Source of the DNA: Limnochordales bacterium
Lineage (GTDB): Bacteria; Bacillota; Limnochordia; Limnochordales; DUMU01
NCBI GenBank assembly: GCA_014896315.1
Contig: JADBKP010000010.1
Span: 142,087 to 206,086 of the forward strand
DNA length: 64,000 bases
Direction: 5' to 3'
The translations under genes and the position numbers were made by a program. The notes under the pieces were generated by a model. The model was not told where the DNA came from and ran no database searches. It saw nothing but the letters and a program-made list of their open reading frames with translations. This document shows positions 4,728-41,089 of this stretch, in pieces (the stretch's first letter is position 1; every line of letters starts with the position of its first letter).

Positions 4728-6274
4728 TCACCTCCTAGGCCAGCAATTAAGCAATTCCGATTTGGCCAGACGGATGGACGGGAAGAGCCGGTCCATCACG
4801 AGGGCGGCAGCGCCAAGAGGCCCGGCATCGCTACCCAGGCGGCCGGCGACTATCTGAACCCGGTTGCGGGCCACGGGCATGGCATGGGTGAGAACGGTCT
4901 CTCTGATAGGTCCAAGCAACATCTCACCGGCACGGGAGACTCCGCCGCCGATCACGATCCGCTCGGGGTTGAGAGTGTTGACCAGGAAGGAGACGGCGAT
5001 GCCGATATAACGGGCGGCCTCATGTATGATGCGGAGCGCCTCGACGTCCCCGGCCGCGGCCGCCCGGGCCACGTCCGCGGCGGTCACGTTGTCGGGAGAG
5101 TCGATCAGGTGCGGCAGATGGGCAAAGGGATATCCTTGCTTGAGCAGACGGGCGGCCTTTCGGGCAATAGCGCGGCCGGAAGCGACTGCCTCAAGGCAGC
5201 CGTAGTTGCCACAGCTGCACTGTGGGCCGTCCTCGGTTACACGGATATGGCCGATCTCGCCCGCGGTTTCGTTTGCCCCGTAATACAGCTGGCCATCCAG
5301 GATCAGGCCCGCGCCGATGGCAGAACCCACAAAAAGGGCCACGAGATTGCGGGAGCTCTCTCCCGCTCCGAACATGTTCTCACCCAGAGTGGCGGCCCGG
5401 ACATCGTTGTCGATGTAGATGGGGACGGTAGGGGGAAGGGGGGAAGGGGGAGGCTCGGGGTTTGGTTCTGGCCACGGCCGGGCCCTTGCCTTTGCCCTTG
5501 CCTTTGCCCATGCTTTTGCGTTTTCCCTTGCGCTTGCCCTTGCTCTTGCGGCTGCCCCTGCCCCTGCCCTTGCTCTTGTCCTTGCCTTTGTCCTTCTTGC
5601 TTGTACTCCTGTATCGCCGTCTGGAGGGCTTGTTCGAGGATGGAACGGACGGCTACGTTGCGCCAGCGCAGGTTGGGGGAGAAGACTGAGTAGCCTTGCT
5701 CGGTGTCTACCAGGCCGGGAATGCCGACGCCGATACCTGCCAGGCGCAGTCTTGGGCTCGCCCCACCTCGGCCCGGTGGCGCGCTGGCTGTGGCCGCGGT
5801 CGGCGCAGGGGTTGTGCCAGTCCTGTTTGCGGCAGTGCTCGCGGACAGGGCTGCAGGTGTGGGATAGGCGAAGTTGGCGATAGCCATGACGATCGCCCTG
5901 GCAACTCGCTGCAGAACCTCTTCGGGGCTCTGGTCCGGGTATGTGGGTAAAGTGGCCCGGGCGAGGGGCTGGCCGCGCAAATCGCTCAACACGGCAACGA
6001 TGTTGGTGAAGCCGACGTTCACCCCGACGACCTGAAAAGCGTCGGGAACGAGCTCGAGCAGAGCCGCGGGGCGGCCGCCACTGGACTCGGCAAAGCTGCC
6101 TTCCCGCACGAGGCCAAGGGCGATCAGCTCGTTGACAATATTGGTGACTGCCGAAGGTGCGAGCTGGCTGCGGCGGGCGATTTCACCCCTGGAGATAGGG
6201 CCGTGGCGGCGGATCAGGTCCAGCACCACCGACCGGTTGATGTTGCGCATACCCGGAAAATTGACGGCCCGCAT
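4728..6274 (-). pseudogene. ROK-family transcriptional repressor (NagC/XylR-like) split by a frameshift inside a Q/G-rich repeat insertion
   Basis: The N-terminal ORF 5303..6274 carries the wHTH (RSVVLDLIRRHGPISRGEIARRSQLAPSAVTNIVNELI). The C-terminal ORF 4728..5375 carries GEIGH and CSCGNYGCLE. The C-terminal frame continues upstream as ..PLPPTVPIYIDNDVRAATLGENMFGAGES. The two frames would join with a 1-nt change in the G4-G6 runs at 5421-5460. Confidence 0.8.
5425..5605. repeat. Degenerate hexanucleotide repeat (CCCTTG/CCTTTG on the + strand; CAAGGG-type on the coding strand) encoding (Q-G/Q-R)n inside the ROK gene
   Basis: The + strand reads gcccttgcctttgcccttgcctttgccc...gcccttgctcttgcggctgcccctgcccctgcccttgctcttgtccttgcctttgtcc. 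The protein reads QEGQRQGQEQGQGQGQPQEQGQAQGKTQKHGQRQGQRQG. Confidence 0.85.
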
Positions 6275-6580
6275 TGCAGGTCGGCCTCCCGTGCAGGCGA
6301 CAGTTCACGAGGGGAGCGGAGTTCTGTCACTATATGATGGAAGTCTGGTGCATCTAGCCGCCAGAATCGGTATTAGCCCGCCCTCGCTACCGACCTTTTG
6401 TCATCACGTGTAATAAGTGGACACAACAAAAACCAACGGCGCCGATTTCTACAAAGCTTTTCGACGGTGGTGGAGGGATTCCTTCTCCACCTTGGCGAAG
6501 TTTTGTAACTAGACGAAGGTGGGGCACCGGTTTGGCCATACCCACCGCGGAGAATCACGTTTGGGTTGGAGGCGTGACTG

Positions 6581-8092
6581 ATGGCTAAGACGCTGGCGAA
6601 GCAGGGGCAAGCGCAGGGATTAGAGCAAGGACAAGTGCAGGTGCAAGCGCAAGAGCAAAGGCTGACTCAGGAACATCAGCAAGCCCAGCAACAGCAGCAA
6701 GTTCAGGAGCAGCAGGGCCACCAGGCCCACACGCGGCCGGCACGGTTGCTGCCGGGTGAGAGGCCGGGCCGCCGCATCAAGGTAGTCATGCTGGGGGCAG
6801 GCAGCGGGTTTACCCAACCCCTCGTGACCGATATTCTCAATATCCCGAGCCTGCCGGGCGGGGAGATCGCCCTGGTCGACATCGACGCTGAACGGTTGGA
6901 GCTGGCCCACCAGCTAGTGGCCAAGCTCATCACCGTCATGGGCAAGGAAGGCAGCTGGAGCGTGACGGCGACGACGGAAAGGCGGCGGGCGTTGCCGGGC
7001 GCGGATTACCTCGTCAACTGCATCGAGGTGTCGGGAACGAAGGCCGTGAAGTTCGACTACGAGATTCCGCTCAAGTATGGGGTGGACCAGTGCATTGGCG
7101 ATACCATCGGTCCGGGCGGATTGATGAAGGCGTTGCGCACGATCCCGGTCTGGGTGGAGGTGCTCAAAGATGCCGAGGAGCTCTGCCCGCAGGCACTGGT
7201 GCTCAACTATACCAACCCGATGAGCATGATGTGCCTCGCCGCAGCGAAAGTCTCCCGGATGCAGGTGGTCGGGCTCTGTCACAGCGTCCAGGGTACGAGT
7301 CGCCTGCTGGCCCACCATGCGGGCGTTCCTTACAACGAAATGCAGTGGAAATGCGCCGGAATAAACCATCTGGCCTGGTTCACCGAACTGACCCATAACG
7401 GGCGCGACCTCTATCCGATCTTGTTTGAGAAGGCGCGGGATCCCAACAGCGAGTTCTACCAGGGTGATCCGGTGCGATGCGACATTATGCTGCACTTTGG
7501 GGCGTTCGTCACCGAGTCGAGCGGCCACTTGAGCGAGTATCTTCCCTATTACCGTAAGCGCAAAGATCTGATGGAGAAGTACATTCGCAGCGGCTATAGG
7601 GGCGAAAGTGGCTTCTACGCCCGCAACTGGCCCAACTGGCGGCGGGGAACGGACGAATACCGGCGCAAGGTGATTGCCGGCGAGGTGGAGATCAAGACGG
7701 AACGGAGCTGGGAATATGCCAGCTACATCATCGAGGCGCATCAGACCAACCGGCCTTATGTGATTCACGGAAACGTGATCAACCACGGGCTGATCGATAA
7801 TCTGCCGCAAGGGCAGTGCGTTGAGGTGGCGGTTATGGTCGACGGCAATGGGTTCAACCCGTGCCGGTTTGGGGAGTTGCCACCGCAGATGGCCGCCATC
7901 TGCCGCAGCAATATGGCCATGTTTGAACTGGGAGTTATTGCGGCGCTGGAAAGCAGCCGGGAGGCGGCAGCCCACGCGCTGATGCTCGATCCCCTAACGG
8001 CGGCGGTTCTGTCGCCGGCCGAGATCAAGCAGATGACCGAGGAGTTGATCGAGGCGGAGCTGGAGCTGTTGCCCGGGTTTCAGCGGAGTTGA
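6581..8092 (+). CDS. Glycoside hydrolase family 4 alpha-galactosidase/alpha-glucosidase (NAD/Mn-dependent) with a Q-rich N-terminal extension
   Basis: 503-aa ORF with the ATG 8 nt after GGAGG. Rossmann motif KVVMLGAGSGF, EIALVDID and GLCHSVQGT are typical of GH4 (MelA/AglA-like). The first ~60 aa are low complexity. Confidence 0.88.
   Translation: MAKTLAKQGQAQGLEQGQVQVQAQEQRLTQEHQQAQQQQQVQEQQGHQAHTRPARLLPGERPGRRIKVVMLGAGSGFTQPLVTDILNIPSLPGGEIALVDIDAERLELAHQLVAKLITVMGKEGSWSVTATTERRRALPGADYLVNCIEVSGTKAVKFDYEIPLKYGVDQCIGDTIGPGGLMKALRTIPVWVEVLKDAEELCPQALVLNYTNPMSMMCLAAAKVSRMQVVGLCHSVQGTSRLLAHHAGVPYNEMQWKCAGINHLAWFTELTHNGRDLYPILFEKARDPNSEFYQGDPVRCDIMLHFGAFVTESSGHLSEYLPYYRKRKDLMEKYIRSGYRGESGFYARNWPNWRRGTDEYRRKVIAGEVEIKTERSWEYASYIIEAHQTNRPYVIHGNVINHGLIDNLPQGQCVEVAVMVDGNGFNPCRFGELPPQMAAICRSNMAMFELGVIAALESSREAAAHALMLDPLTAAVLSPAEIKQMTEELIEAELELLPGFQRS
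6599..6731 (+). repeat. CAAGNG/CAGCAG-type degenerate repeat encoding the Q-rich N-terminus of the GH4 enzyme
   Basis: DNA reads caaggacaagtgcaggtgcaagcgcaagagcaaagg...cagcaacagcagcaagttcaggagcagcag. The protein reads KQGQAQGLEQGQVQVQAQEQRLTQEHQQAQQQQQVQEQQ. Confidence 0.8.
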
Positions 8093-8178
8093 GGCCTGGC
8101 GGCGCCGAGCTCTTACCCCTGCCCCCCATACCTCGCGGCTTGTGGCCCGGTGTCAAGACCGGCGGTGTCGGCCGGCAC

Positions 8179-8206
8179 GGGACGCCTGGGATTGCCCAGG
8201 CGTCCC
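8179..8206 (+). terminator. Strong GC hairpin downstream of the GH4 gene (terminator candidate; no U-tract)
   Basis: gggacgcctggg (8179-8190), loop attg, then cccaggcgtccc (8195-8206). The 12-bp stem is perfect. Confidence 0.4.
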
Positions 8207-8705
8207 GCTCCAATACGTACGCCCGGCATGGGCGAAGAAAGCTCATCGTGCTTGCCCAGGGAGACCTGCGGGTGACCGCGGAGCAACCGGCAACCCAGTT
8301 CGGAAGCACTGGATGAGCCCGCAGGGGTCGGCAGAGACTATAGTACCTACATATGCGGAAACGTAGGGTTCTGGAACGGTTCATCCCATACAAGTCTCGG
8401 TATGACACGGGTTTCTGGTGCTCAGCACCGAGCCATATGCGAGCAGGGCAAATGATGACCAGCCGCGGCCACGAGTTTCACTGAGTGCCGCTTTCCAGGC
8501 ACCGTGTCACTGGCAAGCATTGCCTATATGACTAGCCATCTCGAGGCCGTCGTTTTTCTTCGAAAACTCCTTTCGGCTGCAACATGACTGATAGCTCGGC
8601 GAGATCGGATGCGCGTGGCGTTGCTCCGCCAAAAAACCGCCGGAAAAGTCGGCTGGGATGGCAGGAGTTTGACCTGGTTCGGCGAATTAGTATCAAGCGG
8701 TAACC

Positions 8706-8719
8706 GCTAAACGTTTGCA
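8706..8719. promoter_or_regulatory. Candidate LacI-family operator (imperfect, CG-centred)
   Basis: gctAAACGTTTgca has an 8-bp perfect palindromic core, aaacgttt. It lies about 65 nt upstream of the LacI start at 8782. Confidence 0.35.
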
Positions 8720-8781
8720 TAACGGTGAGGCGGTTACAGGAGACGACTTTGACTGGGCCTGACAAGGGGGCGCCCTGCTGG

Positions 8782-9810
8782 ATGCCGACCATTCGTGACG
8801 TGGCAGCCCTGGCCGGTGTTTCAATTACAACGGTTTCCAGGGTAATCAATGGGAAGAGTTCTCAGATACCAATCAGCGAAGCAACACGAGATCGGATACT
8901 GGCAGCCATACAGACGCTGGGGTACGAGCCTAACGTCATGGCAAAGGGACTGGCTGGACGGCGGTCCCACGCGATCGGGCTGGTGATGTACGATCTAGTA
9001 CACATCACGCATCCGAACTTCTCCCAAATTGCCCACGGTATCGCTACAGCCCTAAGTGATTGCAGCTATGACTTGATGCTACTCCCGATCAAGGGGAAGC
9101 TCCCCCAGAAGAGTTCCAAACCGGTATCCATGGCCTCCTACTACAAACAGCGCCGGGTGGATGGGTTAATCGTAGCGGCTCAAGAAGCCTCGGTAGAAAG
9201 CATTCTGGAACTACATGCGATCGGCTGCCCGTTCGTGCTACTTGGCACGTATCTCCCCGGCAAAGACGTTCCGTGCGTTCGAGTAGATGCGCAGGGAGGA
9301 ATCGCACAGGCAGTGACGCATCTTGTCGGCCTGGGGCACCGACGGATTGGGTTCATTAACGGCCCCGTGGGGTTCCGCATCAACGACGATATGGCAGTAG
9401 GATACCGCCAAGTACTAGAGCCGCTGGGATTGTATGATCCTGCACTCCTGGTGTCGTCGGACTTCACCCCTAAAGCAACCCGGGAGCGCGCTCACCAGTT
9501 GCTCGCTATGCCGGACCGGCCAACGGCGATTCTCGCTGCCGATGATCTTATGGCTGCCGAGGTAGTGCAGGTAGCCCGGGAGGTGGGGCTTTCCGTGCCG
9601 GATAACCTTTCGGTTGTCGGCTATGCGGATTTACCTGTAGCAAGGACCCTAAGCCCCACGCTCACCACGGTCAGAATTCCCATCTCCGAGTCTGGGCGAC
9701 TTGCGGCGGAAATGCTTCTGCAGCTGCTGGATGGGGCGAAACCCGAGGTAGCCTGTATAACCCTTCCGGCTGAACTGGTCGTTCGGCAGTCCACGTCTGC
9801 TCCCCCTTAG
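8782..9810 (+). CDS. LacI-family transcriptional regulator
   Basis: The ORF track starts at GTG 8725. I prefer ATG 8782, which gives the canonical N-terminus MPTIRDVAALAGVSITTVSRVING (HTH_LacI), followed by a periplasmic-binding-protein-like sugar-binding core. Confidence 0.9.
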   Translation: MPTIRDVAALAGVSITTVSRVINGKSSQIPISEATRDRILAAIQTLGYEPNVMAKGLAGRRSHAIGLVMYDLVHITHPNFSQIAHGIATALSDCSYDLMLLPIKGKLPQKSSKPVSMASYYKQRRVDGLIVAAQEASVESILELHAIGCPFVLLGTYLPGKDVPCVRVDAQGGIAQAVTHLVGLGHRRIGFINGPVGFRINDDMAVGYRQVLEPLGLYDPALLVSSDFTPKATRERAHQLLAMPDRPTAILAADDLMAAEVVQVAREVGLSVPDNLSVVGYADLPVARTLSPTLTTVRIPISESGRLAAEMLLQLLDGAKPEVACITLPAELVVRQSTSAPP

Positions 9811-9887
9811 TGGGCAGTCACTTGTATTCGCAGAAGCTATGGACAATCCGTGGCTTTAAGATGAGCCAGAATAGGGAGGTAGCGAAC

Positions 9888-11753: not shown

Positions 11754-11795
11754 CGAAATTCGTGAAGTTTGGCAAAAGAAAGGAGAGAGCAAGAT

Positions 11796-17757: not shown

Positions 17758-18474
17758 GGCGTTTAACCGAGATCACCCACGAGGCTATAGACGTAATAAT
17801 CACGTCACCTACTGCAGGGGAGAACCCTCGCCGGCATGAAGTGGTGCTTGCTAGCTAGCCCCCTGGCATGTCTCCGATTGGCCCTCCCCCGAGCCGAAGA
17901 CGTCGATGGAGTTCCGGCACCCGTGACGTAGAACAGGGATGGAGACCGTTGCGGGCAAGCGGGTCTGACACCGCTGCTACACTCCTGCCTGAGGCAGGAG
18001 TGGATTCCGGACCTGATTTGGGCTCGACAAAGTGGCTACGAGGTGGATGAGAGACAAGCAGGAAGGCAGTAACACGGAGACAGGAGGGGGCGCGCCAGGA
18101 GGCACTCGAGTTCAACGGGCCTCAGCACTGTCGTCCCACGGACGTCTACCCGGATCCCCGCCAGGTCGAGGCGACGCAGGCCCGGGACTTGATGAAGAAG
18201 GGCATCAGCCATGAGCAAGGCATCAATCTCATCACCGTTTCTCATGAAAGCTAGTGAACCCTACAGGTTTAAGGCGAGGGCAGAGGGCCGGAGAAAAAAA
18301 GTATCGGTTGGGGTGATCAAGGAGAAGGAATTGGGGTGGGCTTGTAGAAGTGGTAATCCGTGGCTTTCATCCGGGCTGCGCCTCCAGGACCCCGCCGCAG
18401 AGGCCAGCCCCTTCTTGTTTCTCTGCTTTCGTTGTCAGCTGTCTGCCGGGTGCTCTCCGCCTTCTCTGGTCTAG

Positions 18475-18615
18475 CCGCAGCCTCAGCCTTAGCCTCAGCT
18501 TCAGCGTAAGCCTCTGCCTCAGCCTCTGCTTTAGCCTACGCCTTTGCCTTAGCCTCAGCTTCACCCGCAGCCGCACCCCTCAGCAGTTTCAACCTCAGCC
18601 TTCTCCGCCTTTCCC
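18475..18615. repeat. Degenerate hexanucleotide repeat (GCCTCA/GCCTTA/GCTTCA) spanning the 3' end of the HAD gene and the region beyond it
   Basis: The + strand reads cagcctcagccttagcctcagcttcagcgtaagcctctgcctcagcctctgctttagcctacgcctttgccttagcctcagcttcac. On the coding strand another frame reads GAAAGEAEAKAKA*AKAEAEAEAYAEAEAKAEAAA. Confidence 0.8.
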
Positions 18616-19355
18616 GCCAGGCCGAGCAGCTGCTTGAGCATGTTCCAGTTGACGCTGGTGAAGTCGGGGCGGACTTCGTCGGCGCCGGCGGCTAGCAGGC
18701 GCTCCGGCGGTTCACTGGTGGCGACGGCAAGACACCGCATGCCGGCTCGCTTGGCGGCGGTTACCCCGGCCGCGGCGTCTTCCAGCACGACACACCGGTA
18801 TGGCTCTACACCCACCAGTTCGGCGGCCTTGAGGTAGATGGTGGGGTCGGGTTTGGCCCGTGTCACGTCTTTGCCGGTCACCACGGCGTCGAAAGCATCT
18901 TCCAGGTTGAATTTCCTGATAGTGAATTCAGCGTTTTCCGGTGGCCCGGAAGTAGCCAGGGCAAGGCGGACAGGCGGCATTCCGTCGGAGGTGCGTAGCG
19001 CACGCAGTTCAGCGATCAGCTCCAGGATTCCGGGGACGGGTTTGAGTTGAGGCCCGAACCTTTCCCGGTAGAATGCCTCTTTCTCCGCCGAGATGCGCTG
19101 GATCTGCTCGGGGGTAAAGCGCCCCGGGAAGAGTTCCGCCAGGGCTTCCTCGTTTTTGCGGCCGGAGATGGCCCCGTAGAACATCTCGGCGGTTATCTCA
19201 AGCCCCAGCCTTTCCCGGGCAAAGGCCTGCCAGGCCGCAAGATGGGCCTGGTTGCTGAGGATGATGACCCCATCCATGTCAAAGAGGACTGCGGCGGATG
19301 CGGCAGCTGGGGCGGCTGTGGCTGCAGCGGCAGAGGCTGTGGCTGCGGCGATCAT
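18561..19355 (-). CDS. HAD-IA family hydrolase (beta-phosphoglucomutase / phosphatase-like) with Ala-rich N- and C-terminal low-complexity tails
   Basis: 264 aa with the ATG 9 nt after GAGGTGA. Motif I is LFDMDGVI. Also ALATSGPP, KPDPTIYL and VLEDAAAGVTAAKRAGM. The N-terminus reads [22 protein letters not shown]. Confidence 0.85.
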   Translation of the reverse strand: MIAAATASAAAATAAPAAASAAVLFDMDGVIILSNQAHLAAWQAFARERLGLEITAEMFYGAISGRKNEEALAELFPGRFTPEQIQRISAEKEAFYRERFGPQLKPVPGILELIAELRALRTSDGMPPVRLALATSGPPENAEFTIRKFNLEDAFDAVVTGKDVTRAKPDPTIYLKAAELVGVEPYRCVVLEDAAAGVTAAKRAGMRCLAVATSEPPERLLAAGADEVRPDFTSVNWNMLKQLLGLAGKAEKAEVETAEGCGCG

Positions 19356-19498: not shown

Positions 19499-21406
19499 AT
19501 GGAATGGGACAGCCTGGTGGATTGGCTGCTAAGCCGCATGACGCTGGAGGAGAAGCTTGGCCAGCTTTTCATGCTCGGTTTCAGCGGTACTGAACCGGAT
19601 GCCGGCATCCGTGAATGGATCGAGCGCTGCCACCTCGGCAACGTGGTGCTCTTTGCCGGGAACCTGGTGGACCCGCCCCAGGTTCGGCGTTTGACCGACG
19701 AGTTACAGGCGCTGGCCCGTAAGGCGCAACAGGCCGGCAAAGCGCAGGCGAGCGGGACTGTGGAGGAAGGCGGGAAGGTGGCGGAGGTCGGAGCTCCTGT
19801 TGCGGGCCCGGGCGCTGGGTTCATACCGTTGTTTATCGCCGCCGATCAGGAGGGTGGGATCGTAGTCCGGCTGACGCGAGGTGCGACGGTCTTCCCCGGC
19901 AACATGGCGCTGGGGGCAACCCGTGATCCGGAGCTGGCCCGGCGGGCCGCCGCAGTGATGGGGCGCGAGATGCGGGCGATGGGGATTCAGTTTAACCTCG
20001 CACCGGTACTCGATGTGAACTGCAATCCCCGCAACCCGGTGATCGGCGTCCGTTCGTATGGCGAAGATCCGATGCTGGTCGCGGAGCTCGGAGTGGCGCA
20101 AATTGAAGGTTACCAGAAGTTTGTTGTCGCTACGGCCAAGCATTTCCCCGGGCACGGAGATACCGCGGTCGATTCACACGTAGCCCGGCCGGTGGTGGGC
20201 CACGGGCGGGAGAGGCTCGCGGCGGTGGAACTCGTTCCTTTCCGGCGAGCCATAGCTGCCGGCGTGGGGGCGATCATGACCGCGCACCTGTCTGTGCCGG
20301 CCATCGAACCCGACCCGCGGCTGCCGGCCACGTTGAGCCGCCGGATCGTCACGGGGTTGCTCCGGGAGGAGCTCGGGTATGACGGCATCATCATCACGGA
20401 TTCGCTGGGGATGCGCGGGGTGTCGGCCGAATACGACATGGTGGAAGCATCGCTGCTCGCCCTGGAGGCGGGTTGCGACATCCTGTGTGCCAGCAGTCAC
20501 ACATATTATGGAACTTTCGTCTACGACGCCGTGCTGGCCGCGGTGCGGGCCGGCCGTATCAGCGAAGAGCGGATTGAGGAGTCGGCGCGCCGGGTGCTGA
20601 GGGCCAAAGCGCGGTTTGGGTTGCTGGAAGAGGGGGGCCTGGCCCGGGGCGATGGCAGGGCCGGGGCGTGGACCAGGGCCGGGGCTTGGTCCGGGACCTC
20701 GGCTGCGGCTGCGGTGACGCTGGCAGAGGTGGGTTCACCCGAGCACCAGGCGCTGGCTCAGGAGGTGGCCCGCCGGGCGATGACGCAGGTGAAAGGGCCG
20801 GCAGCACTGCCGGCGGAGACGAAAACGGTGATCGTCATCGAGTTTTCGGCGCAGGCCCAGACCGGGGTGGAAGACTTGCGCCTGGAGCGGGGAACGGCGC
20901 AGGGCCAGATGCAGGGTCAGGCCCGGGGCCAGGCTGAGGGTGCGGCCCAAAGCCAGGCGCAAGGGGCGGCGTGTGGCCCGTTGGCCGCCGCATTGCAGGA
21001 ACTCCTCGGACAACGCAAAAGTCCGCCCCGCCCTGGGACGCAGGTCCTGAGCCTGGTCCTACCCCTGAATCCCGACCCAAACCTCCGCCAACGAATTCTG
21101 TCCACGCTCGAAGGCTTCGGCGGTGCTACCCTTGTGCCGGGCGGGGTGGCGGCAGTGGTAGCCACGCTGGACGCTGTGCGCAATGCCGGCCAGGCCGACC
21201 TGATCGGTGAACTAACCGCTTCGGGCATCCCCGTGTGGGTGGTCTCGCTGCGAAATCCGTATGAGCTCAGTTCACTGGGGGAGGCGGCGGAGAGAGTTTC
21301 GTTCCTTGTGGCGTACAGCCCTCAACCCGTCAGCCTGGCCGCGGCGGCCGAGGTTCTGACCGGGGTACTCATACCCACCGGGAGGTTGCCGATCACGCTG
21401 CCGTGA
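19499..21406 (+). CDS. Glycoside hydrolase family 3 (beta-N-acetylhexosaminidase/NagZ-like) with a C-terminal extension and several low-complexity insertions
   Basis: The ORF track starts at 19298. ATG 19499 lies 8 nt after GGGAGG and gives MEWDSLVDWLLSRMTLEEKLGQLFMLGF. Motifs are DQEGGIVVRL, KHFPGHGDT and IIITDSLGM. Insertions include AGAWTRAGAWSG and GQMQGQARGQAEGAAQSQAQG. Confidence 0.88.
   Translation: MEWDSLVDWLLSRMTLEEKLGQLFMLGFSGTEPDAGIREWIERCHLGNVVLFAGNLVDPPQVRRLTDELQALARKAQQAGKAQASGTVEEGGKVAEVGAPVAGPGAGFIPLFIAADQEGGIVVRLTRGATVFPGNMALGATRDPELARRAAAVMGREMRAMGIQFNLAPVLDVNCNPRNPVIGVRSYGEDPMLVAELGVAQIEGYQKFVVATAKHFPGHGDTAVDSHVARPVVGHGRERLAAVELVPFRRAIAAGVGAIMTAHLSVPAIEPDPRLPATLSRRIVTGLLREELGYDGIIITDSLGMRGVSAEYDMVEASLLALEAGCDILCASSHTYYGTFVYDAVLAAVRAGRISEERIEESARRVLRAKARFGLLEEGGLARGDGRAGAWTRAGAWSGTSAAAAVTLAEVGSPEHQALAQEVARRAMTQVKGPAALPAETKTVIVIEFSAQAQTGVEDLRLERGTAQGQMQGQARGQAEGAAQSQAQGAACGPLAAALQELLGQRKSPPRPGTQVLSLVLPLNPDPNLRQRILSTLEGFGGATLVPGGVAAVVATLDAVRNAGQADLIGELTASGIPVWVVSLRNPYELSSLGEAAERVSFLVAYSPQPVSLAAAAEVLTGVLIPTGRLPITLP
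20899..20965 (+). repeat. CAGGGC/CAGGCC-type degenerate hexamer repeat encoding a Q/G/A-rich insertion in the GH3 gene
   Basis: DNA reads cagggccagatgcagggtcaggcccggggccaggctgagggtgcggcccaaagccaggcgcaagggg. The protein reads AQGQMQGQARGQAEGAAQSQAQG. Confidence 0.7.
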
Positions 21407-21979: not shown

Positions 21980-22300
21980 CTATCGGGCCTGTATGAAAAG
22001 CTCCTGAGACAAAGCTGAGAGTTGGATAAGACTTGGCCAGTCACATCGAATCTCCTTGACATCAGCGGGGGTCAGCTTCTCATCGGGGCGGTTAATGTGG
22101 CGGTCAGCGTTGTATGGGGAGTAGACGGAACAGCCTGGACTCCATCCCGGCCCCCAATGCATGCCCATTCCCCAGCCAGAACCCCATCCCCATCCCCGGT
22201 CGGGGCCGGGTCGGGCGAGGGCGAGGTAGCTTGCCGCCACAATCACACCGGCAGCTACAAGCCCTGCACCGATCCAGAATCCGCGTCGTGCCGGTCTCAT
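21980..22300 (-). CDS. Hypothetical membrane protein with a W/G-rich segment
   Basis: 106 aa. The ATG overlaps the upstream stop (ATGA). It has a TM segment (FWIGAGLVAAGVIVAASYLAL) followed by GWGWGSGWGMGMHWGPGW. Third-position GC drops near the 3' end, so the C-terminus is doubtful. Confidence 0.5.
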   Translation of the reverse strand: MRPARRGFWIGAGLVAAGVIVAASYLALARPGPDRGWGWGSGWGMGMHWGPGWSPGCSVYSPYNADRHINRPDEKLTPADVKEIRCDWPSLIQLSALSQELFIQAR

Positions 22301-23142: not shown

Positions 23143-24663
23143 CTAAGAATTACGCGCGCGAGGTTCGTCCACCGCCGGAGCACCGCGCACCGGCGCTGTT
23201 TCGGGTGAGGGTGGCGGGGGTGGCGGGGGCGGCGGTGGCGGCGGCGGCGGCGTTGCGTCAACCAGCCGGGGGAGCAGAACCTCGAAAACCGTTCCTTTCC
23301 CCACTTCTGAACGGACGTTGATGTTGCCGCCATGGCGGTCGACGATCCAGCGGGCGATGGAAAGTCCCAGGCCCGTGCCGCCGGCCGCCCGGGAACGGGC
23401 CTTGTCAGCCCGGTAGAAACGCTCGAAAATGTGGGGAAGGTCGGCGGCCGGGATTCCAATCCCGGTATCAGCCACCGTCAGTTTGGCCCATTCGCCCTCG
23501 GCTTCGAGGCTCACCCGCACTTCGCCGGCGGGCGTATAACGGAAAGCGTTGTCTAGGAAGATGACGATGAGCTGCTTCAGCCGCTCGGGATCGCCGATGA
23601 TGGTGAGCGGCTCGACACGGGTCAGGCGGAGCGCGACCGGTTCGCCCCGGCCGCGTCGCTGGTAGGGGCGGAGCGTCTCCACCAGCAGCCGGTCGAGCTC
23701 TACCGGTTCCTGGGCTATCGTCGCTCCCGCATCCGCACGGGCCAGTACCAGCAGGTCGTCGATGAGCCGGGACATGCGTTCGGCTTCCGCCCGGGTGTCG
23801 TCCAGGATTTCCCGCCTTTCCTCCGGGCTGAGACCCGGCTGTTGCCCAGAGGCAAGCAGATCGAGATTGCCCCGGATTACGGTGAGGGGAGCCCTCAACT
23901 CGTGGGACGCGTCGGCCACAAACCGCTGCTGTGCATCGTAGGCTTCCGCCAGACTGGCCAGCATTTCATTGAAAGTGGTCGCCAGTTGACTCAACTCGTC
24001 GCCGCGGTTTGGCACTTTAATACGCCGGTGAAAGCCACGCCCGGCAGCGATGGCGCGGGCCGTCTCGGTCATGACGGAGAGCGGCTGCAGGGCGCTTTCG
24101 GCTACCAGCAGCCCTACCAGGAGGGCGAGCATGATGGCCAACCACCCGATGCTGATCAACCACATGGCAAAATGCCGCAATGTATGGTGAACTGCTGCCA
24201 GTGAGGTTGCCACTTGCAAGAAGAGCTGCGAACGTGGGCTGAGAGGTCCCACCCAGACCCGCCAGTTGCGGTCCACGGTCCGCAACTTTGGAGCACCGGT
24301 GGCGGCACTGAGCCGCGCCAGTTCGACCTGGGGCGGGGGTAACGGCCGGGCGGTGGTACTCGCCACCACCTCGCCGTCGGCGGTGAAGAGCAGTGTTACC
24401 GTGTCCGGGGAGGCAAAGGCGACCAGATTCCTCCTTATCATTATTCCGTGAGGCATCAGTGTACCGGCTACGTGCTGGGCCTGGCGGACCAGGTGGTCGT
24501 CCACAGATCGGAAGAGCTGAGCCGCCAGCAGGACGTAAAGCAGCAGGCCGAAGAGTGCCAGAGCAGCTGCGAGAACCGATGCATACCACAGGGACAGTCG
24601 CCACCTGATCGACAACCGCCACTGCAAGTTCGGCCGGTGAAGATGCGACCACAACAAGCTCAT
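23143..24663 (-). CDS. Sensor histidine kinase (2 TM, HAMP, HisKA, HATPase_c) with a poly-proline C-terminal tail
   Basis: 506 aa. H-box [14 protein letters not shown]; N and G boxes ([27 protein letters not shown]). The start overlaps the response-regulator stop (ATGA). The tail reads [18 protein letters not shown]. Confidence 0.92.
23208..23252. repeat. GGY/GGC triplet-rich tract encoding 14 consecutive prolines at the kinase C-terminus
   Basis: The + strand reads agggtggcgggggtggcgggggcggcggtggcggcggcggcggcg. Confidence 0.8.
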
Positions 24664-34336: not shown

Positions 34337-34475
34337 GAGTGGTAATTTCCGCAAGCAACCGATTCCCACACCGCTGTCGTACCCCAATCCCTATCAGACC
34401 AACCGGGGTAGCAACCCGTCTGCGAATGTCAGCCGGCCCCCGACGGGAAAGGCGTGGATCAAGTCGCAGGACGGG

Positions 34476-34670: not shown

Positions 34671-34682
34671 CATAACTCAAGT

Positions 34683-34711
34683 AACCCTAACCCTAACCCT
34701 AACCCTAACCC
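34683..34711. repeat. Perfect (AACCCT)4.8 tandem hexamer, equal to (TTAGGG)n on the opposite strand; intergenic
   Basis: Read directly: aaccct aaccct aaccct aaccct aaccc, starting 12 nt after the stop at 34670. Confidence 0.95.
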
Positions 34712-34772
34712 GGCCGGCCGGGGCGTGCCGGGCCGGGTCAACCCGGCGGAAGCGTCCTGAGGTGAGCTGCTG

Positions 34773-35315
34773 GTGAATTGCACGCTTCGTCGTGCCGAAA
34801 GGGCCGATATTCCGTTCATACGCGACATCTATAACGATGCCATTCTGAATACGACGGCCACGTTTGATTACGAACCAAAGACCATGGCGGAGATGGAGCG
34901 ATGGTACGATGAACATGATGAGCGTCATCCCATTCTCGTGGCCGTTGTGGGTGGTCGGGTTTGCGGCTGGACCTCACTGAGCAGATGGTCCGACCGGGCT
35001 GCTTATGACGGGACGGTAGAGCTTTCGGTCTACGTTCACCGGGACTATCGAGGGCAGGGTATAGGCCGGAAGCTAATGGCGGCCATACTCGCAGAAGGCA
35101 GGCGGCTTGGCCTGCATACTGTCATTTCCAGGATTGAAGGCGGTAACGCGGCGAGCATCCACTTGCACACCGCGCTCGGCTTTCGTATGGTGGGCGTTAT
35201 GAAGGAAGTCGGGTACAAATTCGGGCGCTGGTTGGATGTGGCGATAATGCAGCTTATGCTGAACCACGAAAGTTCGTCAGTCCGGGTGAACCGATTGGGA
35301 CCTGGAAATGAGTGA
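34773..35315 (+). CDS. GNAT-family N-acetyltransferase, phosphinothricin/methionine-sulfoximine acetyltransferase (PAT/MddA-like)
   Basis: 180 aa with the GTG 7 nt after [43 protein letters not shown]...[27 protein letters not shown] is the PAT family pattern. Confidence 0.85.
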
Positions 35316-35320
35316 GTGGT

Positions 35321-35770
35321 GTGCGCGCGGTAATCCAGCGGGTAAGTTCAGCGTCGGTGACGGTTGACGGAGAACTCATCGCGGCCATCGGGCGGGGGCT
35401 TCTGGTACTGCTTGGCGTGGGCCGGGGCGATACCCCGCAGGATGCAGCCTACCTCTCTCGCAAAGTGGTGGAGCTGCGGATTTTCGACGATGAGAAGGGA
35501 CGGATGAACCGGAGCATCCGGGATGTCGGCGGGGAGGTCCTTATTGTCTCCCAGTTTACACTCTACGCCGATGCCGGCGGGGGGCGGCGGCCCAGTTTTG
35601 CGGAAGCGGCGCCGGCCGCGCTAGCCCGTCCTCTCTATGAGATGTTTGTGGAGTACGTGCGGCAGCAAGGTGTGCCGGTGCAGACAGGGCAGTTTGGCGC
35701 GATGATGGCCGTGCAACTGGTAAACGATGGCCCGGTGACCATCCTGGTAGAGAGTGAACGGAAGGGTTGA
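35321..35770 (+). CDS. dtd: D-aminoacyl-tRNA deacylase
   Basis: The ORF track starts at GTG 35312, overlapping the GNAT stop. GTG 35321 gives the canonical MRAVIQRV. Also [21 protein letters not shown] and NDGPVTI. Confidence 0.9.
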
Positions 35771-35805
35771 GGGGTCTGATTGCTGCGACCCCGGCCGAGC
35801 CCCGT

Positions 35806-36657
35806 TTAGCCCGTTAATGAGTAAAGAATGCCGACCGTGCCCGGACCGCAGTGGCTGGAGATGACCGCTCCTGCTTCTGTGACCAGGACTTCTTTGACCG
35901 GCAGAGCCTTGTACAACTCGGAGGCCAGGTAGTTAGCACCGTCGGGGTAGGCGGCGTGGGTGACGAAAATCCGGTGCAGATCAATCCTTTCCTTATCCTG
36001 CAGGCACCAGCGAAGCAGGCTCGCCAGAGCCCTGGCCCGCGACCCCATCAGTTTCTCCGCGACCTCCAGCTTTCCGTCGATTACCTCGATGCGAGGTTTG
36101 ATCCGCAAAAGACTCCCCACGATGCTCTGCATGGCTGAACACCGCCCGCCCTTGTACAGGTAGTCGAGGGTGTCGATAATAAAGGACGTCTTCACCAGTG
36201 GTACTCGTGCCTGTACCTTGCCGGCGATCTCGGGCAACGGCAGGCCGGCTGCGGCCAACTCAGCTGCATAAAGAGCCAGCAGGCCAATCCCCGTTGACAG
36301 GTTTAGCGAATCAACCAGCGCGATGCGATCGCTGGGGAAAGACTGGGCGGCGATACGGGCCGCCTGGAATGTTCCCGACAGCTTGGAAGACAGACCCACG
36401 TAGATGATATCGTCGCCTGCTTCGATTATCGGACGAAAGATAGCTTCAACGTCGGCGGGAGTGGGCATCGAGGTCTGCGGGAGATTTCCGGTGGACGCCA
36501 CGTATTCAAAAAGACGCTCCGGCTGCAGATCCACTCCGTCCCGGTACACCTGATCGCCGAGGCGGACGTAGAGAGGTATGACGGTAAGGTCGAAGCGCTG
36601 GATCAGCTCGGATGAAAGGTCGGCTGTACTGTCGGTAACCACGCGCACGCGTGGCAT
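35806..36657 (-). CDS. DegV-family fatty-acid-binding protein
   Basis: The ORF track starts at 36684; ATG 36657 follows GGGGAGG. MPRVRVVTDSTADLSSELIQRFDLTVIPLYV... is a typical DegV N-terminus. Confidence 0.88.
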   Translation of the reverse strand: MPRVRVVTDSTADLSSELIQRFDLTVIPLYVRLGDQVYRDGVDLQPERLFEYVASTGNLPQTSMPTPADVEAIFRPIIEAGDDIIYVGLSSKLSGTFQAARIAAQSFPSDRIALVDSLNLSTGIGLLALYAAELAAAGLPLPEIAGKVQARVPLVKTSFIIDTLDYLYKGGRCSAMQSIVGSLLRIKPRIEVIDGKLEVAEKLMGSRARALASLLRWCLQDKERIDLHRIFVTHAAYPDGANYLASELYKALPVKEVLVTEAGAVISSHCGPGTVGILYSLTG

Positions 36658-36844
36658 TGTAACGACTTCCTCCCCGCTTGGCATAGTTCTGGCGCCGCCT
36701 GCCTTTCGAGTCTACCACTGCTGATTTGCTTTGCAAACTCTCCTGGCTGCGTGGCTGCGAGCGGGCACCTCGATAAAGACCAGGCCCGAATCTACCGAAG
36801 CAAGGAAGTGGGTGAACGACTCTCTGGAGACTGAGGTGGCATAA

Positions 36845-38692
36845 GTGAAAGTGTCAATCCGTTTCAAGTTGTTGTTTACATTTCTCGCAATATTGTTATT
36901 GTTCGCTATCGTGAGCGGCACATCCCTGGTGGTCCAGCGGACAATTGTTAACGGTTATGAAATAATAACCGACCGATTCCTGCCTGTCACTGTGAACATG
37001 GAGAAGTTGCGCAGCGAGATGATGCTGCAGGGCAAAGCATTGCTGAACTTCCTGCTCACCTACGATCCAGCGGCGGCCGAAGAGTTCAACAATGCCGCAG
37101 ATCGGATTCGGGTAATCTCGGACACCCTGGAGGCGCAGACCGAAGGAACGGGGTCGGAAAAGTACCTGGCCCAGGTCCGGGCAATTGCGGAGGAGTACGA
37201 GGCTTTCGGTCGGGAGTTGCTCAGCGGCGGGGGAGCAGACGCGGCGGTAGCCGTTCATACCCGGGGCAATGAGATCAGTGCCCGGTTGGATACGACGCTG
37301 AACGAGTGGCGGAAACATCTGGATTCCCGGCAGGCGGAGCTTCGGCAGGAAGCCGACAATTCACGGCGGTGGGGTATGATCCTCACCGTGGTAGCGCTGG
37401 TGGTAGCCCTCCTGTTCGGATTGGGGGTTGCCTTCTTTTTCAGTAACGCCATCACCCGGGCGCTGGCACAACTCACGAAGGTGGCTGGTGAGATAGCAGC
37501 CGGCAACCTGACAGTTGAGATTCCGCCGATCAAGACGGGGGATGAGATTCAGGTACTGGGCGAGGCACTTGCCCACATGCATCAGAATATGCAACGGATC
37601 ATCGGGGCGGTAGTCGGCGCGGCCCACGACCTGTCCGCCGCCAGCCAGGAACTTTCGGCTTCGACCGAAGAGTTTGCCGCCACCATAGAGCAGATCTCCA
37701 ACACTATTCAGCAGGTAGCGCAGGGGGCGCAGGAGCAGAGTTCGGCGGTGAGTAACACCGCCCACTCCATTACGCAGTTGCAGACGGCGGTAAACCGGGT
37801 GGCCAAAGGGGCGGAGAACCAGGTAGCCAGCGTCCGAGAGTCCCTGGCAAAGGTGGATAGCATGCGTTCAGCACTGGAGAGCAACCGGTCGCTTTTGCAT
37901 ACCGTACGGCAAGTGGTGGCAAACAGTTCGAGCCTTGCCAAAGAGGGCGGTGAGGTGATCGAGAAGGTCAACGCCAGTATCGCCCGGATCAAAGCCGACG
38001 CAACTTCTGTCTACAGCCTGATTCGGGCGCTTGAGAACAATACCCGCGACATAGGTCGCATTCTGGAGGTTATCAGTGAGGTGGCCGATCAGACCAACCT
38101 CTTGGCTCTCAATGCTGCTATTGAGGCCGCCCGCGCCGGTGAACAGGGCCGTGGCTTTGCGGTAGTGGCCGATGAGGTGCGCAAGCTGGCCGAAAGAACG
38201 ACGGCCGAAACGAAGGCCATCGCCGATATTGTCACTCGCATCCAGAAGGCGACTGCCGAAGCGGGCGAAGGGATGGGGGTCAGCGTCCGGGATGTGGAGG
38301 CAGGTGAGCAATTGGTACAGGAAGCGACCCGAGCTCTAGACCAGATTGAGGAGGGGGCTAAAGAGGCAGAGGCGGCTATCGCCTCGCTGGTGACTGCAGC
38401 CGGTACTCTCGAGGAGGCAAGCACGGCCATCGAAGAAGCTGTGCACCGCATAGCAGCTGTGGCAGAAGAAAACCAGGCGGCGACGGAGGAGATGGCGGCC
38501 GGTATCGAGGAGATTCGCCAGGGAATCGACTCGGTGGCAGCCGTCTCGGAGGAGGGCGCAGCCTCGGCAGAGGAGGTTGCGGCTTCGGCCGAGAATGCCA
38601 GTCAGACGGTGCAGACCATCTCGGCTTCGGCCCAGACTCTGGCCGGGATGGCCCAGAAACTGCAGCAGTTGGTGGCGGGATTCAAGGTCTGA
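36845..38692 (+). CDS. Methyl-accepting chemotaxis protein (2 TM, HAMP, MCP signalling domain)
   Basis: 615 aa with the GTG 5 nt after GAGGTGG. It contains the highly conserved [39 protein letters not shown]. Confidence 0.92.
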
Positions 38693-38740
38693 ACCTGGAC
38701 CGTTTGGACTGCGAGCAACCTGGAGCAGAGCCAGCACAAC

Positions 38741-38778
38741 AGGGGCCGGTACTCACTTCGGCCCCTGCTTTGCTTTGG
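38741..38778 (+). terminator. Terminator candidate for the MCP gene; overlaps the 3' end of the convergent ClC gene
   Basis: aggggccg (38741-38748) pairs with cggcccct (38759-38766) around a 10-nt loop, followed by gctttgcttt. Confidence 0.5.
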
Positions 38779-41089
38779 GCATAACACTGGCGCGCAAAGC
38801 CTCTACGACGCTGCGATCGCAGACGGCCACCAGCACATCTCCTGATCGGAGCTGGGTTGCTCCGTGCGGAATGAGAACCTGGCGGCCCCGGCGTATCGAG
38901 GCTATGACACATGCCGGGGGTAACCCCAGGTCGACCAGGCGTTTTCCGATAGCAGGCGACGTGCGGGGAACCTTGATCTCCAGTACCTCGGCTCCCGTGA
39001 GCGAGCTGAGCCGGATCATCTCCGCCCGGTGTTGAAGGGCCGTCTTGCGGATGAGGGCCAGTTCATAGGCCCGGCCGATGTCCTCCCGGGTTATCATACC
39101 GACCACTCGCCGCGGGTCATGGGGGGCTACCACAGGTAGCCAGGGCCGGTTCTGGCTGCTCATGAGCCGGAGGGCCTCCCACATGGAGAGGCCCGGAGAG
39201 GCCGTTGCCGGATCGGGAATGCAGACGGCCATGACCGTGAGCGCAGAGGCGGGAGCTGCTTGCCCCTCGAAAGATCCCTCGGGAGAGAAGGAAGAGGCCG
39301 AGTCCGGTGACGAAGGTGCGGGTGCGGGCGCAAGGTCGGCCGAAGTCTTCGCCTCCGTGCCAGTGCCAGTGCCAGTCCCTGTCCCAGTCCCAGTCTCAGT
39401 CTCGACCCCAGTCTCCGCCGCACGCCCCGCCGTGCTCGGCGCCGAGGTGCCCGCCGCACTTGCGGTCCTGGTCCAAGCCCCACCTGCTGTCCCGACGCCG
39501 GTCGCCGCCTCATCTCCGACTGCCCGCCTGGGTATTGTCCCGGTAGTAAGCGCCAGGTCGATGTCGGCCAGGGAGGCGATGCCCAGCAGCAGACCCTGGG
39601 CATCCACAACTACGCCGGCCGGTTGATGGGCTTGTTGCAGGGCCTGGCGGGCTTCAGCCAGAGGCAGCGTCGCAGGCAGGAATACCACATTGCGGCTCAT
39701 CGCTTCCTCGACGGTTACCCCCTGCATAACGTCGATATCTCGGCCGCGCACCAGGTTGATCCCGCGCCGGCGCAGGGGGGCGTGGTAAATCCCATGGGGT
39801 AACCATCGCTCCGCCAGCAGCACCGCCATTCCCACGGCGGCGAGTAGCGGGACAATCAGGCGGTAATCTCGGGTCATCTCAAAAACGATCAGAGGAGCGG
39901 TAAGAGGGGCACGGATGGTGGCGGCCAGCATGGCTGCCATTCCGACGATGGCGTATACTGCCGGCGCTGAGATCGTGCCCGGCAGGGCCAGTTCCAGGAG
40001 CTTTCCGTACAACCCACCCAGCATTGCGCCGATGAAAAGAGAAGGTGCGAAGACACCGCCCACGAACCCCGTGCCAAGGCTGACGGCCGTGGCCAGGATC
40101 TTCAGCAACAGCAGCAGGGCCAGAGAAAGGATGGGGAAGTACTCGCCAAGCAGCAGCAGTTCGATGGTGTTGTAGCCGGAGCCAAAGATCTGAGGCGTAA
40201 AGAGCAGGGCAAGAAGGCCAAGTACCAGCCCTCCCAGTACTGGACGCAGGGGTGCGGGCACGGGCAGAGCTGAACCGCGCTCTTCGGCCATCTCGATGCT
40301 GCGAGTAAAGAGGACGGCACAGCCGGCAGCCAGGAGTCCCAGAACTCCGAAGAAGGGGAGCTCGGCCAGACTGCCCAGGCGGTAGGAGGGAATGACAAAG
40401 GCGGGATGAGTTCCAAGCACGGCCTGGGCTACGGCGGAGGCGAGCACGGAGGCCAGAACTACCAGACCGAATGAACCGGGGGCGTAGTCAAAGAGGATTA
40501 CTTCCAGGGCAAAGAAGACACCCGCAATCGGTGCATTGAAGGTGGTGGCGAGGCCTGCGGCTGCCCCTGCCGCTACCAGGAGGCGCATGTTCTCCTCGGC
40601 CACCCGCAGGCGCTGCGCCAGAGCCGAGCCGAGGCTTGCGCCCATGTGCAGGCTGGGGTCCTCCGGCCCGAGGGATGCGCCGCTGCCGATAGAGATCGCA
40701 GCGGTTAGAGCCGAGGGAATAGCCTGCCTGTACGGCATTCTTCCGCCCGCCAGCGCCACCGCCTCAATGATACCGGCAAGTCCCGGCAGGGGCTCGAGAG
40801 GGAGCAACGTGCCGAGGTCGGTGGGCCGGCGTCGGCCGCGGCTCAACCAGCTGAGCAGACCAATCAGAGCTCCGCCGAGGATGGGTGGCAGCACCTGTCC
40901 TCCCCAGGCGAGCACATCCAGGTACAGAGTGTCGAAAAAGAGCGTCTGTAATGTGGTTATAAGGTAACGGAAACCTATAACGACCAGTGCTGTCCCTGCC
41001 CCTACCACCGCTGCCAGTGCCAGGGCAACCGAATGATCAGGCAGCTCCGCCCATCTGCTCTGCCGGGGTGAATGTCCCTCCAGCCCCAC
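38753..41089 (-). CDS. ClC-family chloride channel/antiporter with a C-terminal CBS pair and TrkA_C (RCK_C) domain; a long low-complexity insertion lies within the CBS region
   Basis: 778 aa. ClC motifs GSGASLGPEDP, GVFAPSLFIGA and GYNTIE. CBS-like segments flank about 100 aa of T/G/A/S/P-rich sequence (..ETGVETETGTGTGTGTGTGTEAKTS..). The end (EVLEIKVPRTSPAIGKRLVDLGLP..VIASIRRGRQVLIPHG.T.L..GDVLV) is RCK_C-like. Confidence 0.88.
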   Translation of the reverse strand: MGLEGHSPRQSRWAELPDHSVALALAAVVGAGTALVVIGFRYLITTLQTLFFDTLYLDVLAWGGQVLPPILGGALIGLLSWLSRGRRRPTDLGTLLPLEPLPGLAGIIEAVALAGGRMPYRQAIPSALTAAISIGSGASLGPEDPSLHMGASLGSALAQRLRVAEENMRLLVAAGAAAGLATTFNAPIAGVFFALEVILFDYAPGSFGLVVLASVLASAVAQAVLGTHPAFVIPSYRLGSLAELPFFGVLGLLAAGCAVLFTRSIEMAEERGSALPVPAPLRPVLGGLVLGLLALLFTPQIFGSGYNTIELLLLGEYFPILSLALLLLLKILATAVSLGTGFVGGVFAPSLFIGAMLGGLYGKLLELALPGTISAPAVYAIVGMAAMLAATIRAPLTAPLIVFEMTRDYRLIVPLLAAVGMAVLLAERWLPHGIYHAPLRRRGINLVRGRDIDVMQGVTVEEAMSRNVVFLPATLPLAEARQALQQAHQPAGVVVDAQGLLLGIASLADIDLALTTGTIPRRAVGDEAATGVGTAGGAWTRTASAAGTSAPSTAGRAAETGVETETGTGTGTGTGTGTEAKTSADLAPAPAPSSPDSASSFSPEGSFEGQAAPASALTVMAVCIPDPATASPGLSMWEALRLMSSQNRPWLPVVAPHDPRRVVGMITREDIGRAYELALIRKTALQHRAEMIRLSSLTGAEVLEIKVPRTSPAIGKRLVDLGLPPACVIASIRRGRQVLIPHGATQLRSGDVLVAVCDRSVVEALRASVMPKAKQGPK
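39357..39416. repeat. Degenerate hexamer repeat (GCCAGT/CCCAGT/CTCAGT) encoding (T-G)n / (T-E)n in the ClC gene
   Basis: The + strand reads gtgccagtgccagtgccagtccctgtcccagtcccagtctcagtctcgaccccagtctcc. Confidence 0.85.

Follow-up and report, generated by a model that had tools for sequence, protein, structure and literature searches.

Short repeats within genes are known from several quite different systems. The phase-variable contingency loci of pathogens contain simple sequence repeats (SSRs) with units of 1-5 nt, the Drosophila gene period carries a Thr-Gly hexanucleotide repeat (ACNGGN)n, and Rickettsia palindromic elements represent in-frame selfish insertions; the notion of 'cryptic simplicity' is said to go back to Tautz et al. 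in 1986. Studying a stretch of 64,000 nt from a Limnochordales bacterium (GenBank assembly GCA_014896315.1, contig JADBKP010000010.1, positions 142,087 to 206,086), in the following called the window, reveals tandem arrays, most clearly of hexanucleotides, within or at the ends of unrelated genes (ROK, GH4, HAD, GH3, ClC) and in one intergenic region. We consider it likely that these arrays are short tandem repeats specific to their lineage and evolutionarily young, with slipped-strand mispairing at replication on chance proto-repeats as the most likely origin. They are a well-resolved case of a known process in a lineage without prior description, and no new mechanism or system.

As in contingency loci, slipped-strand mispairing would alter the number of units; unlike there, the 6-nt units keep the reading frame without on/off switching, and the host genes code for metabolic enzymes, a channel and regulators instead of surface antigens. 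Because the units (6 nt or multiples of 3) are frame-neutral, a phase-variation contingency locus was rejected; the ROK relatives are moreover intact. The ClC array is of the same Thr-Gly hexanucleotide type as that of period, a likeness in form only. As with eukaryotic dipeptide repeats, degenerate arrays appear to grow from seeds and their length varies between close lineages, but the host is a bacterium, in whose genomes such arrays are generally depleted, and the likeness is one of sequence. With the Rickettsia palindromic elements the inserts share that they add peptides to loops of conserved proteins without destroying them. However, they have no element and no palindrome in common, each insert being a local tandem repeat.

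Short tandem repeats are indel hotspots in bacteria, though depleted in most of them (PMC12699852), and reports on units of 6-9 nt are rare (PMC12699852, PMC4692102). According to the summary of Mrazek 2007 in PMC4692102, longer SSR runs are commoner in high-G+C non-pathogens. With these long SSRs of 5-11-nt units, as far as the two sources describe them (Mrazek et al. 2007 via PMC4692102; PMC12699852), the window arrays share head-to-tail units of about 6 nt, a free-living host with about 60% G+C, strong differences between close relatives and the character of indel hotspots. They differ from the long SSRs described there in that they are mostly located in or at the ends of conserved enzyme genes, are translated as dipeptides and are degenerate. 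Like prokaryotic low-complexity regions they represent biased segments at termini and linkers, but while the survey of these regions stresses conservation and function (PMC6821194), the window segments lack conservation already between proteins of 72-94% identity. Finally, the intergenic (TTAGGG)5 resembles the G-quadruplex heptamer repeats of Xanthomonas and Nostoc (PMC4692102) in having at least four G3 tracts, in its intergenic position and in its variation between relatives, but unlike those it is present as a single copy in the window, and the coding arrays lack (G3N3)4. In the literature we found no report of repeat-rich proteins in Limnochordia.

Tandem arrays in the window and chance controls

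The window has a G+C content of about 60% and a GC skew which is positive all along, and its genes encode sugar-utilisation enzymes, ABC binding proteins and regulators. By Pfam the array-bearing genes were assigned to ROK with a MarR-type helix-turn-helix (HTH) domain, GH4, HAD and GH3, and further hosts are a HisKA/HATPase kinase and a ClC channel with CBS and TrkA_C domains. An Rfam scan of the window matched no family.

Arrays were called with Tandem Repeats Finder (TRF), and periodicity was also measured as lag identity (lag-3, lag-6, lag-12). TRF finds four clear period-6 arrays, in ROK, at the HAD 3' end, in intergenic DNA and in ClC; weaker periodicity, of 6, 12 or 18 nt, is seen in the GH4 N-terminus and at two sites in GH3 (Table 1). 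The lag-6 identity of the ROK, HAD and ClC arrays is 0.69-0.72 versus 0.08-0.31 at lag 3; with the perfect intergenic array included the clear arrays range from 0.69 to 1.0 (lag-3 at most 0.31), and the GH4 array and the second GH3 site reach about 0.5. A preliminary description, made from the letters of this DNA only, had listed the arrays, and they are indeed present at those positions, with translations that fit what had been described. The hexanucleotide period ascribed to them there holds for ROK, the HAD 3' end, the intergenic array and ClC and more weakly for GH4 and GH3, but not for the Pro14 tail of the kinase (period 3/9/15) or the HAD N-terminus (period 9).

In coding sense the consensus units read CAAGGG (ROK), CARGNG (GH4), CAGGGC (GH3), GCTGAG (HAD) and ACTGGG (ClC), and the intergenic unit TTAGGG. 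It had been proposed that the units are related to each other, which we can not maintain: likeness is confined to the three Gln-Gly arrays (ROK, GH4, GH3; CARGGN), and when all inserts were compared with the window by BLASTN the sole significant DNA cross-match was between ROK and GH4 (41 nt, 83%, E = 2e-5), whose arrays are about 1 kb apart, in inverted orientation, and have a common unit.

An expectation from GC content and codon bias alone, raised in the preliminary description as a possible objection, does not account for the arrays. Forty dinucleotide shuffles yielded no period-6 array with a score of at least 50 versus four observed, and 60 within-gene codon shuffles yielded 0.00 such arrays (score at least 40) versus two observed inside coding sequences. 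When 60 shuffles were restricted to 20-codon blocks, by which the local amino-acid composition is kept, 0.02 arrays per replicate were found versus the same two. Because these local shuffles nearly never reproduce the arrays, their alternating order represents real tandem structure and not codon bias. By TRF, lag identity and shuffling the window thus contains head-to-tail repeats of short units beyond chance, as is characteristic of bacterial SSRs. A control of 1.3 Mb of loci of other bacteria contains 0.3-0.5 such arrays per 64 kb; as the window was selected for having these arrays, the enrichment is a post hoc one.

Turnover of the arrays among relatives

The comparison covers 64 kb of the window genome and about 90 kb from relatives. 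The nearest sequences to the window come from uncultured Bacillota of biogas and fermenter metagenomes, and farther matches are labelled Limnochordaceae, Limnochordales or Limnochordia. L081 (Logan, metagenome run SRR24392716, 65,980 bp) is the window's own contig and nearly all of it corresponds to the window, whose own proteins were found on one contig only in the public collections searched. The relatives form a graded divergence series. L095 (Logan DRR198553) shows about 85% nucleotide identity to the window and is syntenic over ROK-GH4; L001, from a metagenome-assembled genome (MAG), is 96.4% identical to L095; the contigs L083 and L088 (JGI 3300012949) have identities of 80% (HAD), 72-75% (GH3), 86-88% (ClC) and 73-83% (MCP) to the window; and the MAG GCA_012839805.1 with its sample contigs (L002, L084-L087, L090-L094) has 90% (GH4), 87% (ROK) and 67% (GH3). 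In a metagenome scan for further alleles the closest relative found reached only 82%. L001 (JBLNBY010000335.1) and the protein P0348 (MGE5481542.1) are near-identical to this Bacillota/Limnochordia-like lineage, yet their MAG is labelled 'Bacteroidota bacterium', which is probably a binning error.

None of the inserts is present in distant homologues, and in relatives at 72-94% identity the matching loop sites hold inserts that are shorter than, or differ from, those of the window. When 14 orthologue pairs of the window and sister contigs are compared, low-complexity indels account for most of the internal differences in length, with either side carrying the longer form. The alignment of L001 and L095 over 3,689 nt has two gaps, and the only one longer than a single base corresponds to precisely one 6-nt unit of the GH4 QG array. 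Only these two among the GH4 relatives carry a QG array at the matching point, with another sequence and length than in the window; the repeat is absent from L002 (90% identical, reading MAETVESESAVDRRADEEQGHRAHTK), L096, L003 and L004. A second unit-sized indel, GVGV versus GV, is seen between GH3 alleles of at least 90% identity. Growth from a seed can be followed in a GH51-like gene, which reads TATASS in L090 and ATAT..SSATASS, a short seed, in L081 just upstream of the window; in L095 the seed has grown to about 18 Ala-Thr units ((GCCACG)18.3, TRF score 122). Unit-sized length polymorphism is thus found between close relatives, not within the population of the window. Together with the arrays in non-coding DNA, these cases partly support the earlier suggestion of a microsatellite-type process. 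Non-conservation in orthologues and origin from short seeds are likewise seen.

The ROK inserts are placed in two loops of the N-terminal half. At site 1 distant ROKs have no insert, P0242 about 16 aa, P0241 about 30 aa and the window about 44 aa; at site 2 the lengths are 0, about 12, about 24 and about 70 aa, in the same order, with P0241 and P0242 being 85% and 87% identical to the window protein. The GH3 protein, which is NagZ-like, has three loop sites, where the low-complexity sequence differs in each clade member (P0001-P0005); for insert 1 sequence and length differ in each relative, and at insert 2 P0002 has QGQGQGQGQ where the window reads QGQMQGQARGQAEG, with other low-complexity sequence in P0003 and P0004. 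P0002 has an additional (DQN)3/HPS-rich insert at another place, and ordinary and distant NagZ proteins are without any of the GH3 inserts. In an AlphaFold2 model of the window GH3 (60-sequence alignment, mean predicted local distance difference test score, pLDDT, 88.7; predicted template modelling score, pTM, 0.90) pLDDT falls below 50 only at residues 386-400, 461-470 and 472-489 and dips to 55-77 at 81-110, which are the three inserts. The other arrays are located at the N-terminus (GH4, HAD), at the C-terminus (HAD, kinase) and in the linker between the CBS domains (ClC), where P0121 (86-88% identical) lacks 66 aa, (TG)n included. The insertions do not recur at equal length in the orthologues compared, in agreement with the earlier view that these are not conserved protein features.

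Two arrays are not driven by the protein. The HAD 3' array lies mostly past the stop codon at 18561-18563, out of the HAD frame and with an in-frame TAG, and a GGGG run stands between the translated tail (KAEKAEVETAEG) and the remaining array. Being out of frame and containing stop codons, this array does not represent a conserved feature of the protein. In L083 the orthologue (80% identical) is 18 aa shorter at this end, without the C-terminal tail, and also lacks the Ala-rich N-terminal extension. The perfect (TAACCC)5 is flanked by genes which are syntenic in the sister contig L088, where the repeat is absent; no other copies of this telomere-like array were found in the window, and no terminator or promoter consensus was found near it. 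A telomere or a chimeric contig was rejected for (TAACCC)5, with five internal units, syntenic flanks and no further copies. From the out-of-frame HAD array and the perfect intergenic one it follows that the arrays arise and persist as DNA, whether translated or not.

The preliminary description had taken the process to be one of hexamers. Since several arrays with periods of 12-36 occur in frame in glutamate-synthase-like genes of the JGI sister, the repeat tendency is clade-wide and not restricted to hexamers. In L083 in-frame 12-36-nt repeats can be found at 7472-7781, 8587-8660 and 6080-6134 in glutamate-synthase-like and ferredoxin-like genes, for example DGSAASST (2.4 copies), SEWxQG (5) and AAGDVA (3). 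Beside GH4 in L002 (9782-9815) a LacI-type regulator holds (CGTTAA)5.7, which encodes NVIVNVNVT near the N-terminus and is another lineage-specific hexanucleotide array.

Origin of the arrays and competing explanations

From these observations we infer a slippage mechanism and neutrality of the inserts; mismatch repair may play a part. Replication slippage on chance proto-repeats would add and drop units, and selection would clear those arrays that disrupt folded protein. The survivors would be in-frame (6, 9, 12, 18 ... nt) and lie in disordered surface loops, inter-domain linkers, termini or intergenic DNA. Point mutation would then erode them, and the perfect (TAACCC)5, the ClC TG array with 88% matches and the ROK, HAD and GH4 arrays with 69-73% could represent a series of increasing age. 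Bacterial MutS-type mismatch repair reportedly, after work by Parker and Marinus in 1992, handles loops beyond about 3-4 nt poorly; six nt might then be the shortest in-frame loop likely to escape it, which would favour hexamers over trimers. The encoded QG, TG, AE and AT stretches are probably tolerated, neutral floppy linkers and not conserved functional features.

Several observations speak against, or limit, an origin by recent and neutral slippage. Between the L090-L094 contigs, with identities of 99.7-100%, no indel occurs in 11-13 kb (differences in gene length among them are differences in gene calling), and sister ClC alleles of at least 90% identity have no linker indels. Because near-identical strains are without indels and the sister ClC linkers are unchanged, the rate is not extreme, and strain-level instability was rejected. 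Degeneracy (69-73% matches) marks most of the arrays, so that only the ClC array and (TAACCC)5 give clear signs of recent activity. The low-complexity share of the window proteins is 0.98%, against a median of 0.4% and a mean of 0.97% in the controls, and a proteome unusually rich in low complexity was rejected on the basis of these means. The sample is small: the window, itself a post hoc choice, contains four strong arrays. Furthermore, three arrays encode the QG dipeptide, which hints at a selective or mutational preference beyond pure neutrality.

The QG dipeptide in three independent arrays would also fit an explanation in which the repeats are selected as functional flexible or disordered linkers, for domain spacing, solubility, localisation or condensates, their rapid change being adaptive tuning. 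The recurrence of inserts at identical loop and linker sites in several relatives points in the same direction, and a survey argues that prokaryotic low-complexity regions are often conserved and functional (PMC6821194). However, neither presence nor length nor sequence type of the linkers is kept across orthologues: each relative has its own sequence and length, and the inserts are missing from distant orthologues that share the domains. The HAD array, out of frame and with stop codons, and the perfect array in intergenic DNA do not agree with selection on a linker either, and the hosts are unrelated enzymes, a channel and regulators. We therefore regard selected linkers as improbable. Growth of the arrays mainly by recombination (unequal crossing-over, gene conversion) or by stalling at non-B DNA such as G-quadruplexes, instead of simple polymerase slippage, appears to be less probable still. 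The unit shared by the inverted ROK and GH4 arrays about 1 kb apart might be expected from recombination, and (TTAGGG)5 is a canonical G-quadruplex motif, but arrays of 30-120 nt are short for homologous recombination and the polymorphism seen is of a single unit. Judged from its letters, (TTAGGG)5 at 34682-34711 is the only candidate site in the window for (G3N3)4, a motif of four or more G3 tracts with short loops. With (GGGNNN)4 at this telomere-like array only, a G-quadruplex basis for the arrays was rejected.

Several insertions in unrelated genes, and a peptide of AGAWTR type, AG(A/G)AWTR, common to the GH3 and ClC inserts, would be in line with copies of a small in-frame mobile element like the Rickettsia palindromic elements. 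But the DNA match behind this peptide is just 19 nt (E = 0.1-0.5), and common ends or a palindrome structure are missing. Apart from the QG unit in ROK and GH4, no insert shares significant DNA similarity with another. Scattered homologous copies of a single element were thus not found, and such an element, extremely improbable in our estimate, was rejected.

An origin of the arrays or of the frame breaks as assembly or sequencing artefacts has to be considered, as the window is a short-read metagenome contig. For the arrays and frame breaks as a whole we consider it very unlikely. Homologous arrays occur at the same sites in the independent assemblies L001 (MAG) and L095 (Logan, another run) and in P0002; assemblers collapse repeats and do not create them; and the flanking synteny is intact. 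For the two frameshifts alone an artefact is quite possible. The reading-frame problems reported earlier for ROK and the HAD tail do exist, but both are located in adjoining G/C homopolymer runs and not, as had been thought, in the hexamer arrays. The ROK gene is split into the open reading frames (ORFs) 5303-6274 and 4728-5375, whose frames meet in the C5/C6/C5 Pro-rich stretch at 5427-5465, beside the array and outside it, while in the relatives ROK is encoded by one unbroken ORF of 428-456 aa. Either break, that in ROK as well as that in the HAD tail, could be a single-base slippage mutation in the organism or an assembly error. At the ROK break the + strand of 5427-5465, GGGGGAAGGGGGGAAGGGGGAGGCTCGGGG, which is the non-coding strand of ROK, has G5/G6/G5/G4 tracts and represents a strong motif of G-quadruplex type.

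Returning to slippage on chance proto-repeats, it is possible, though we would not count on it, that replication in the Limnochordia-like genus and in its relatives is unusually prone to slippage or permissive in repair, for example with weak handling of loops of at least 6 nt. If so, in-frame repeats would continually create disordered linkers in housekeeping enzymes, and the group would offer a natural system in bacteria for studying how microsatellites and intrinsically disordered segments are born. As seen in the window and its relatives, dipeptide repeats have grown step by step out of seeds at fixed loop sites of ordinary enzymes, a channel and a regulator, and one array has decayed out of frame. 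This offers a clear snapshot of the birth and loss of disordered linkers and tails in bacterial proteins. The inserts are also an annotation hazard: they inflate protein lengths, split genes in automated annotation (ROK) and can mislead homology-based domain boundaries in MAGs.

Array coordinates and further repeats

Table 1. Tandem arrays and low-complexity inserts in the window, with positions counted from its first letter.
Feature	Position	Strand	Evidence
Pro-rich stretch from C5/C6/C5 runs (G runs on + strand), adjoins ROK array	5427-5481	-	three-frame translations
ROK array	5482-5595	-	TRF GCCCTT x19, 73% matches
ROK insert site 2, ~20 degenerate CAAGGG units, (QG/QE/QR)n	5482-5601	-	TRF; lag-6 identity 0.71
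ROK insert site 1, Ala/Thr/Pro-rich, ~44 aa, before GIGVGIPG motif	5741-5872	-	relatives' alignment
GH4 N-terminal Gln-rich extension (QG/QA/QV/QE units, then Q-rich)	6593-6730	+	TRF periods 6/12/18
GH4 N-terminus array	6601-6715	+	TRF periods 6/12/18
HAD 3' end array, (GCTGAG/GCTAAG)n, would encode (AE/AK)n	18473-18584	-	TRF AGCCTC x18.5, 71% matches; three-frame translations
Translated HAD C-terminal tail, LAGKAEKAEVETAEGCGCG	18564-18620	-	in-frame remnant of HAD 3' array
HAD N-terminal Ala-rich extension, 17 aa	19284-19352	-	TRF period 9
GH3 (NagZ-like) insert 0, ARKAQQAGKAQASGTVEEGGKVAEVGAPVAGPGAG	19739-19828	+	varies in P0001-P0003; absent in P0004 and beyond; pLDDT 55-77
GH3 array	20644-20689	+	TRF period 18
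GH3 insert 1, GRAGAWTRAGAWSGTS, 18-nt unit x2.6, linker of N- and C-terminal domains	20644-20714	+	TRF period 18; pLDDT <50 at residues 386-400
GH3 insert 2, GTAQGQMQGQARGQAEGAAQSQAQGA, degenerate QG array	20879-20965	+	lag identity; pLDDT <50 at residues 461-489
GH3 second site	20899-20970	+	under TRF threshold; lag-6 0.48, lag-12 0.60, lag-3 0.20
(GW)n dipeptide stretch in small ORF, RGWGWGSGWGMGMHWGPGW	22182-22197	-	TRF CCCCAT x2.7; absent from the preliminary description
Pro14, C-terminal tail of histidine kinase	23209-23252	-	TRF period 3/9/15, trinucleotide-type
Intergenic array, perfect (TAACCC)5, = (TTAGGG)5 on - strand	34682-34711	.	TRF TAACCC x5, 100% matches; between genes
ClC enlarged CBS1-CBS2 linker, including (ACTGGG)n = (TG)n at 39360-39401	39251-39517	-	TRF, alignments
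ClC array	39360-39401	-	TRF CCAGTC x7, 88% matches

The small ORF with the (GW)n stretch (21980-22300, - strand) has no Pfam match. It is clustered with genes of YHS-domain, SHOCT-like and cupredoxin-like proteins and of a two-component system, and the cluster may serve in a response to copper.

Besides the arrays, a perfect palindrome GTTGCA-W4-TGCAAC occurs once in the window, in intergenic DNA at 49503-49518 (0 expected), and as a pair with 34-nt spacing upstream of an HTH_36-type gene in L083 (263-278/297-312) and in L095 (1395-1410/1429-1444); in 173 other fetched loci it was not found. It might function as an operator or represent a repeat element specific to this clade. Downstream of that HTH_36-type gene there are 15-nt tandem arrays of 3-6 CACAGAGCCAGCCGC-like copies (L095 2-94, L001 3640-3683, L083 1572-1653), which are not present in the window. 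Their iteron-like form suggests a replication or mobile module.

Intergenic direct repeats can be found in the window at 49409-49449, 49573-49600 and 59674-59736. They include a 21-nt unit in two copies (GAGTGCGAAGTGCGGAGGCCA) and a 14-nt unit in two copies (AGATAGCGCCAGCG), and GCAACCAG-like 10-nt repeats precede the gene starting at 59829. The 21-, 14- and 10-nt repeats may be binding sites of regulators.

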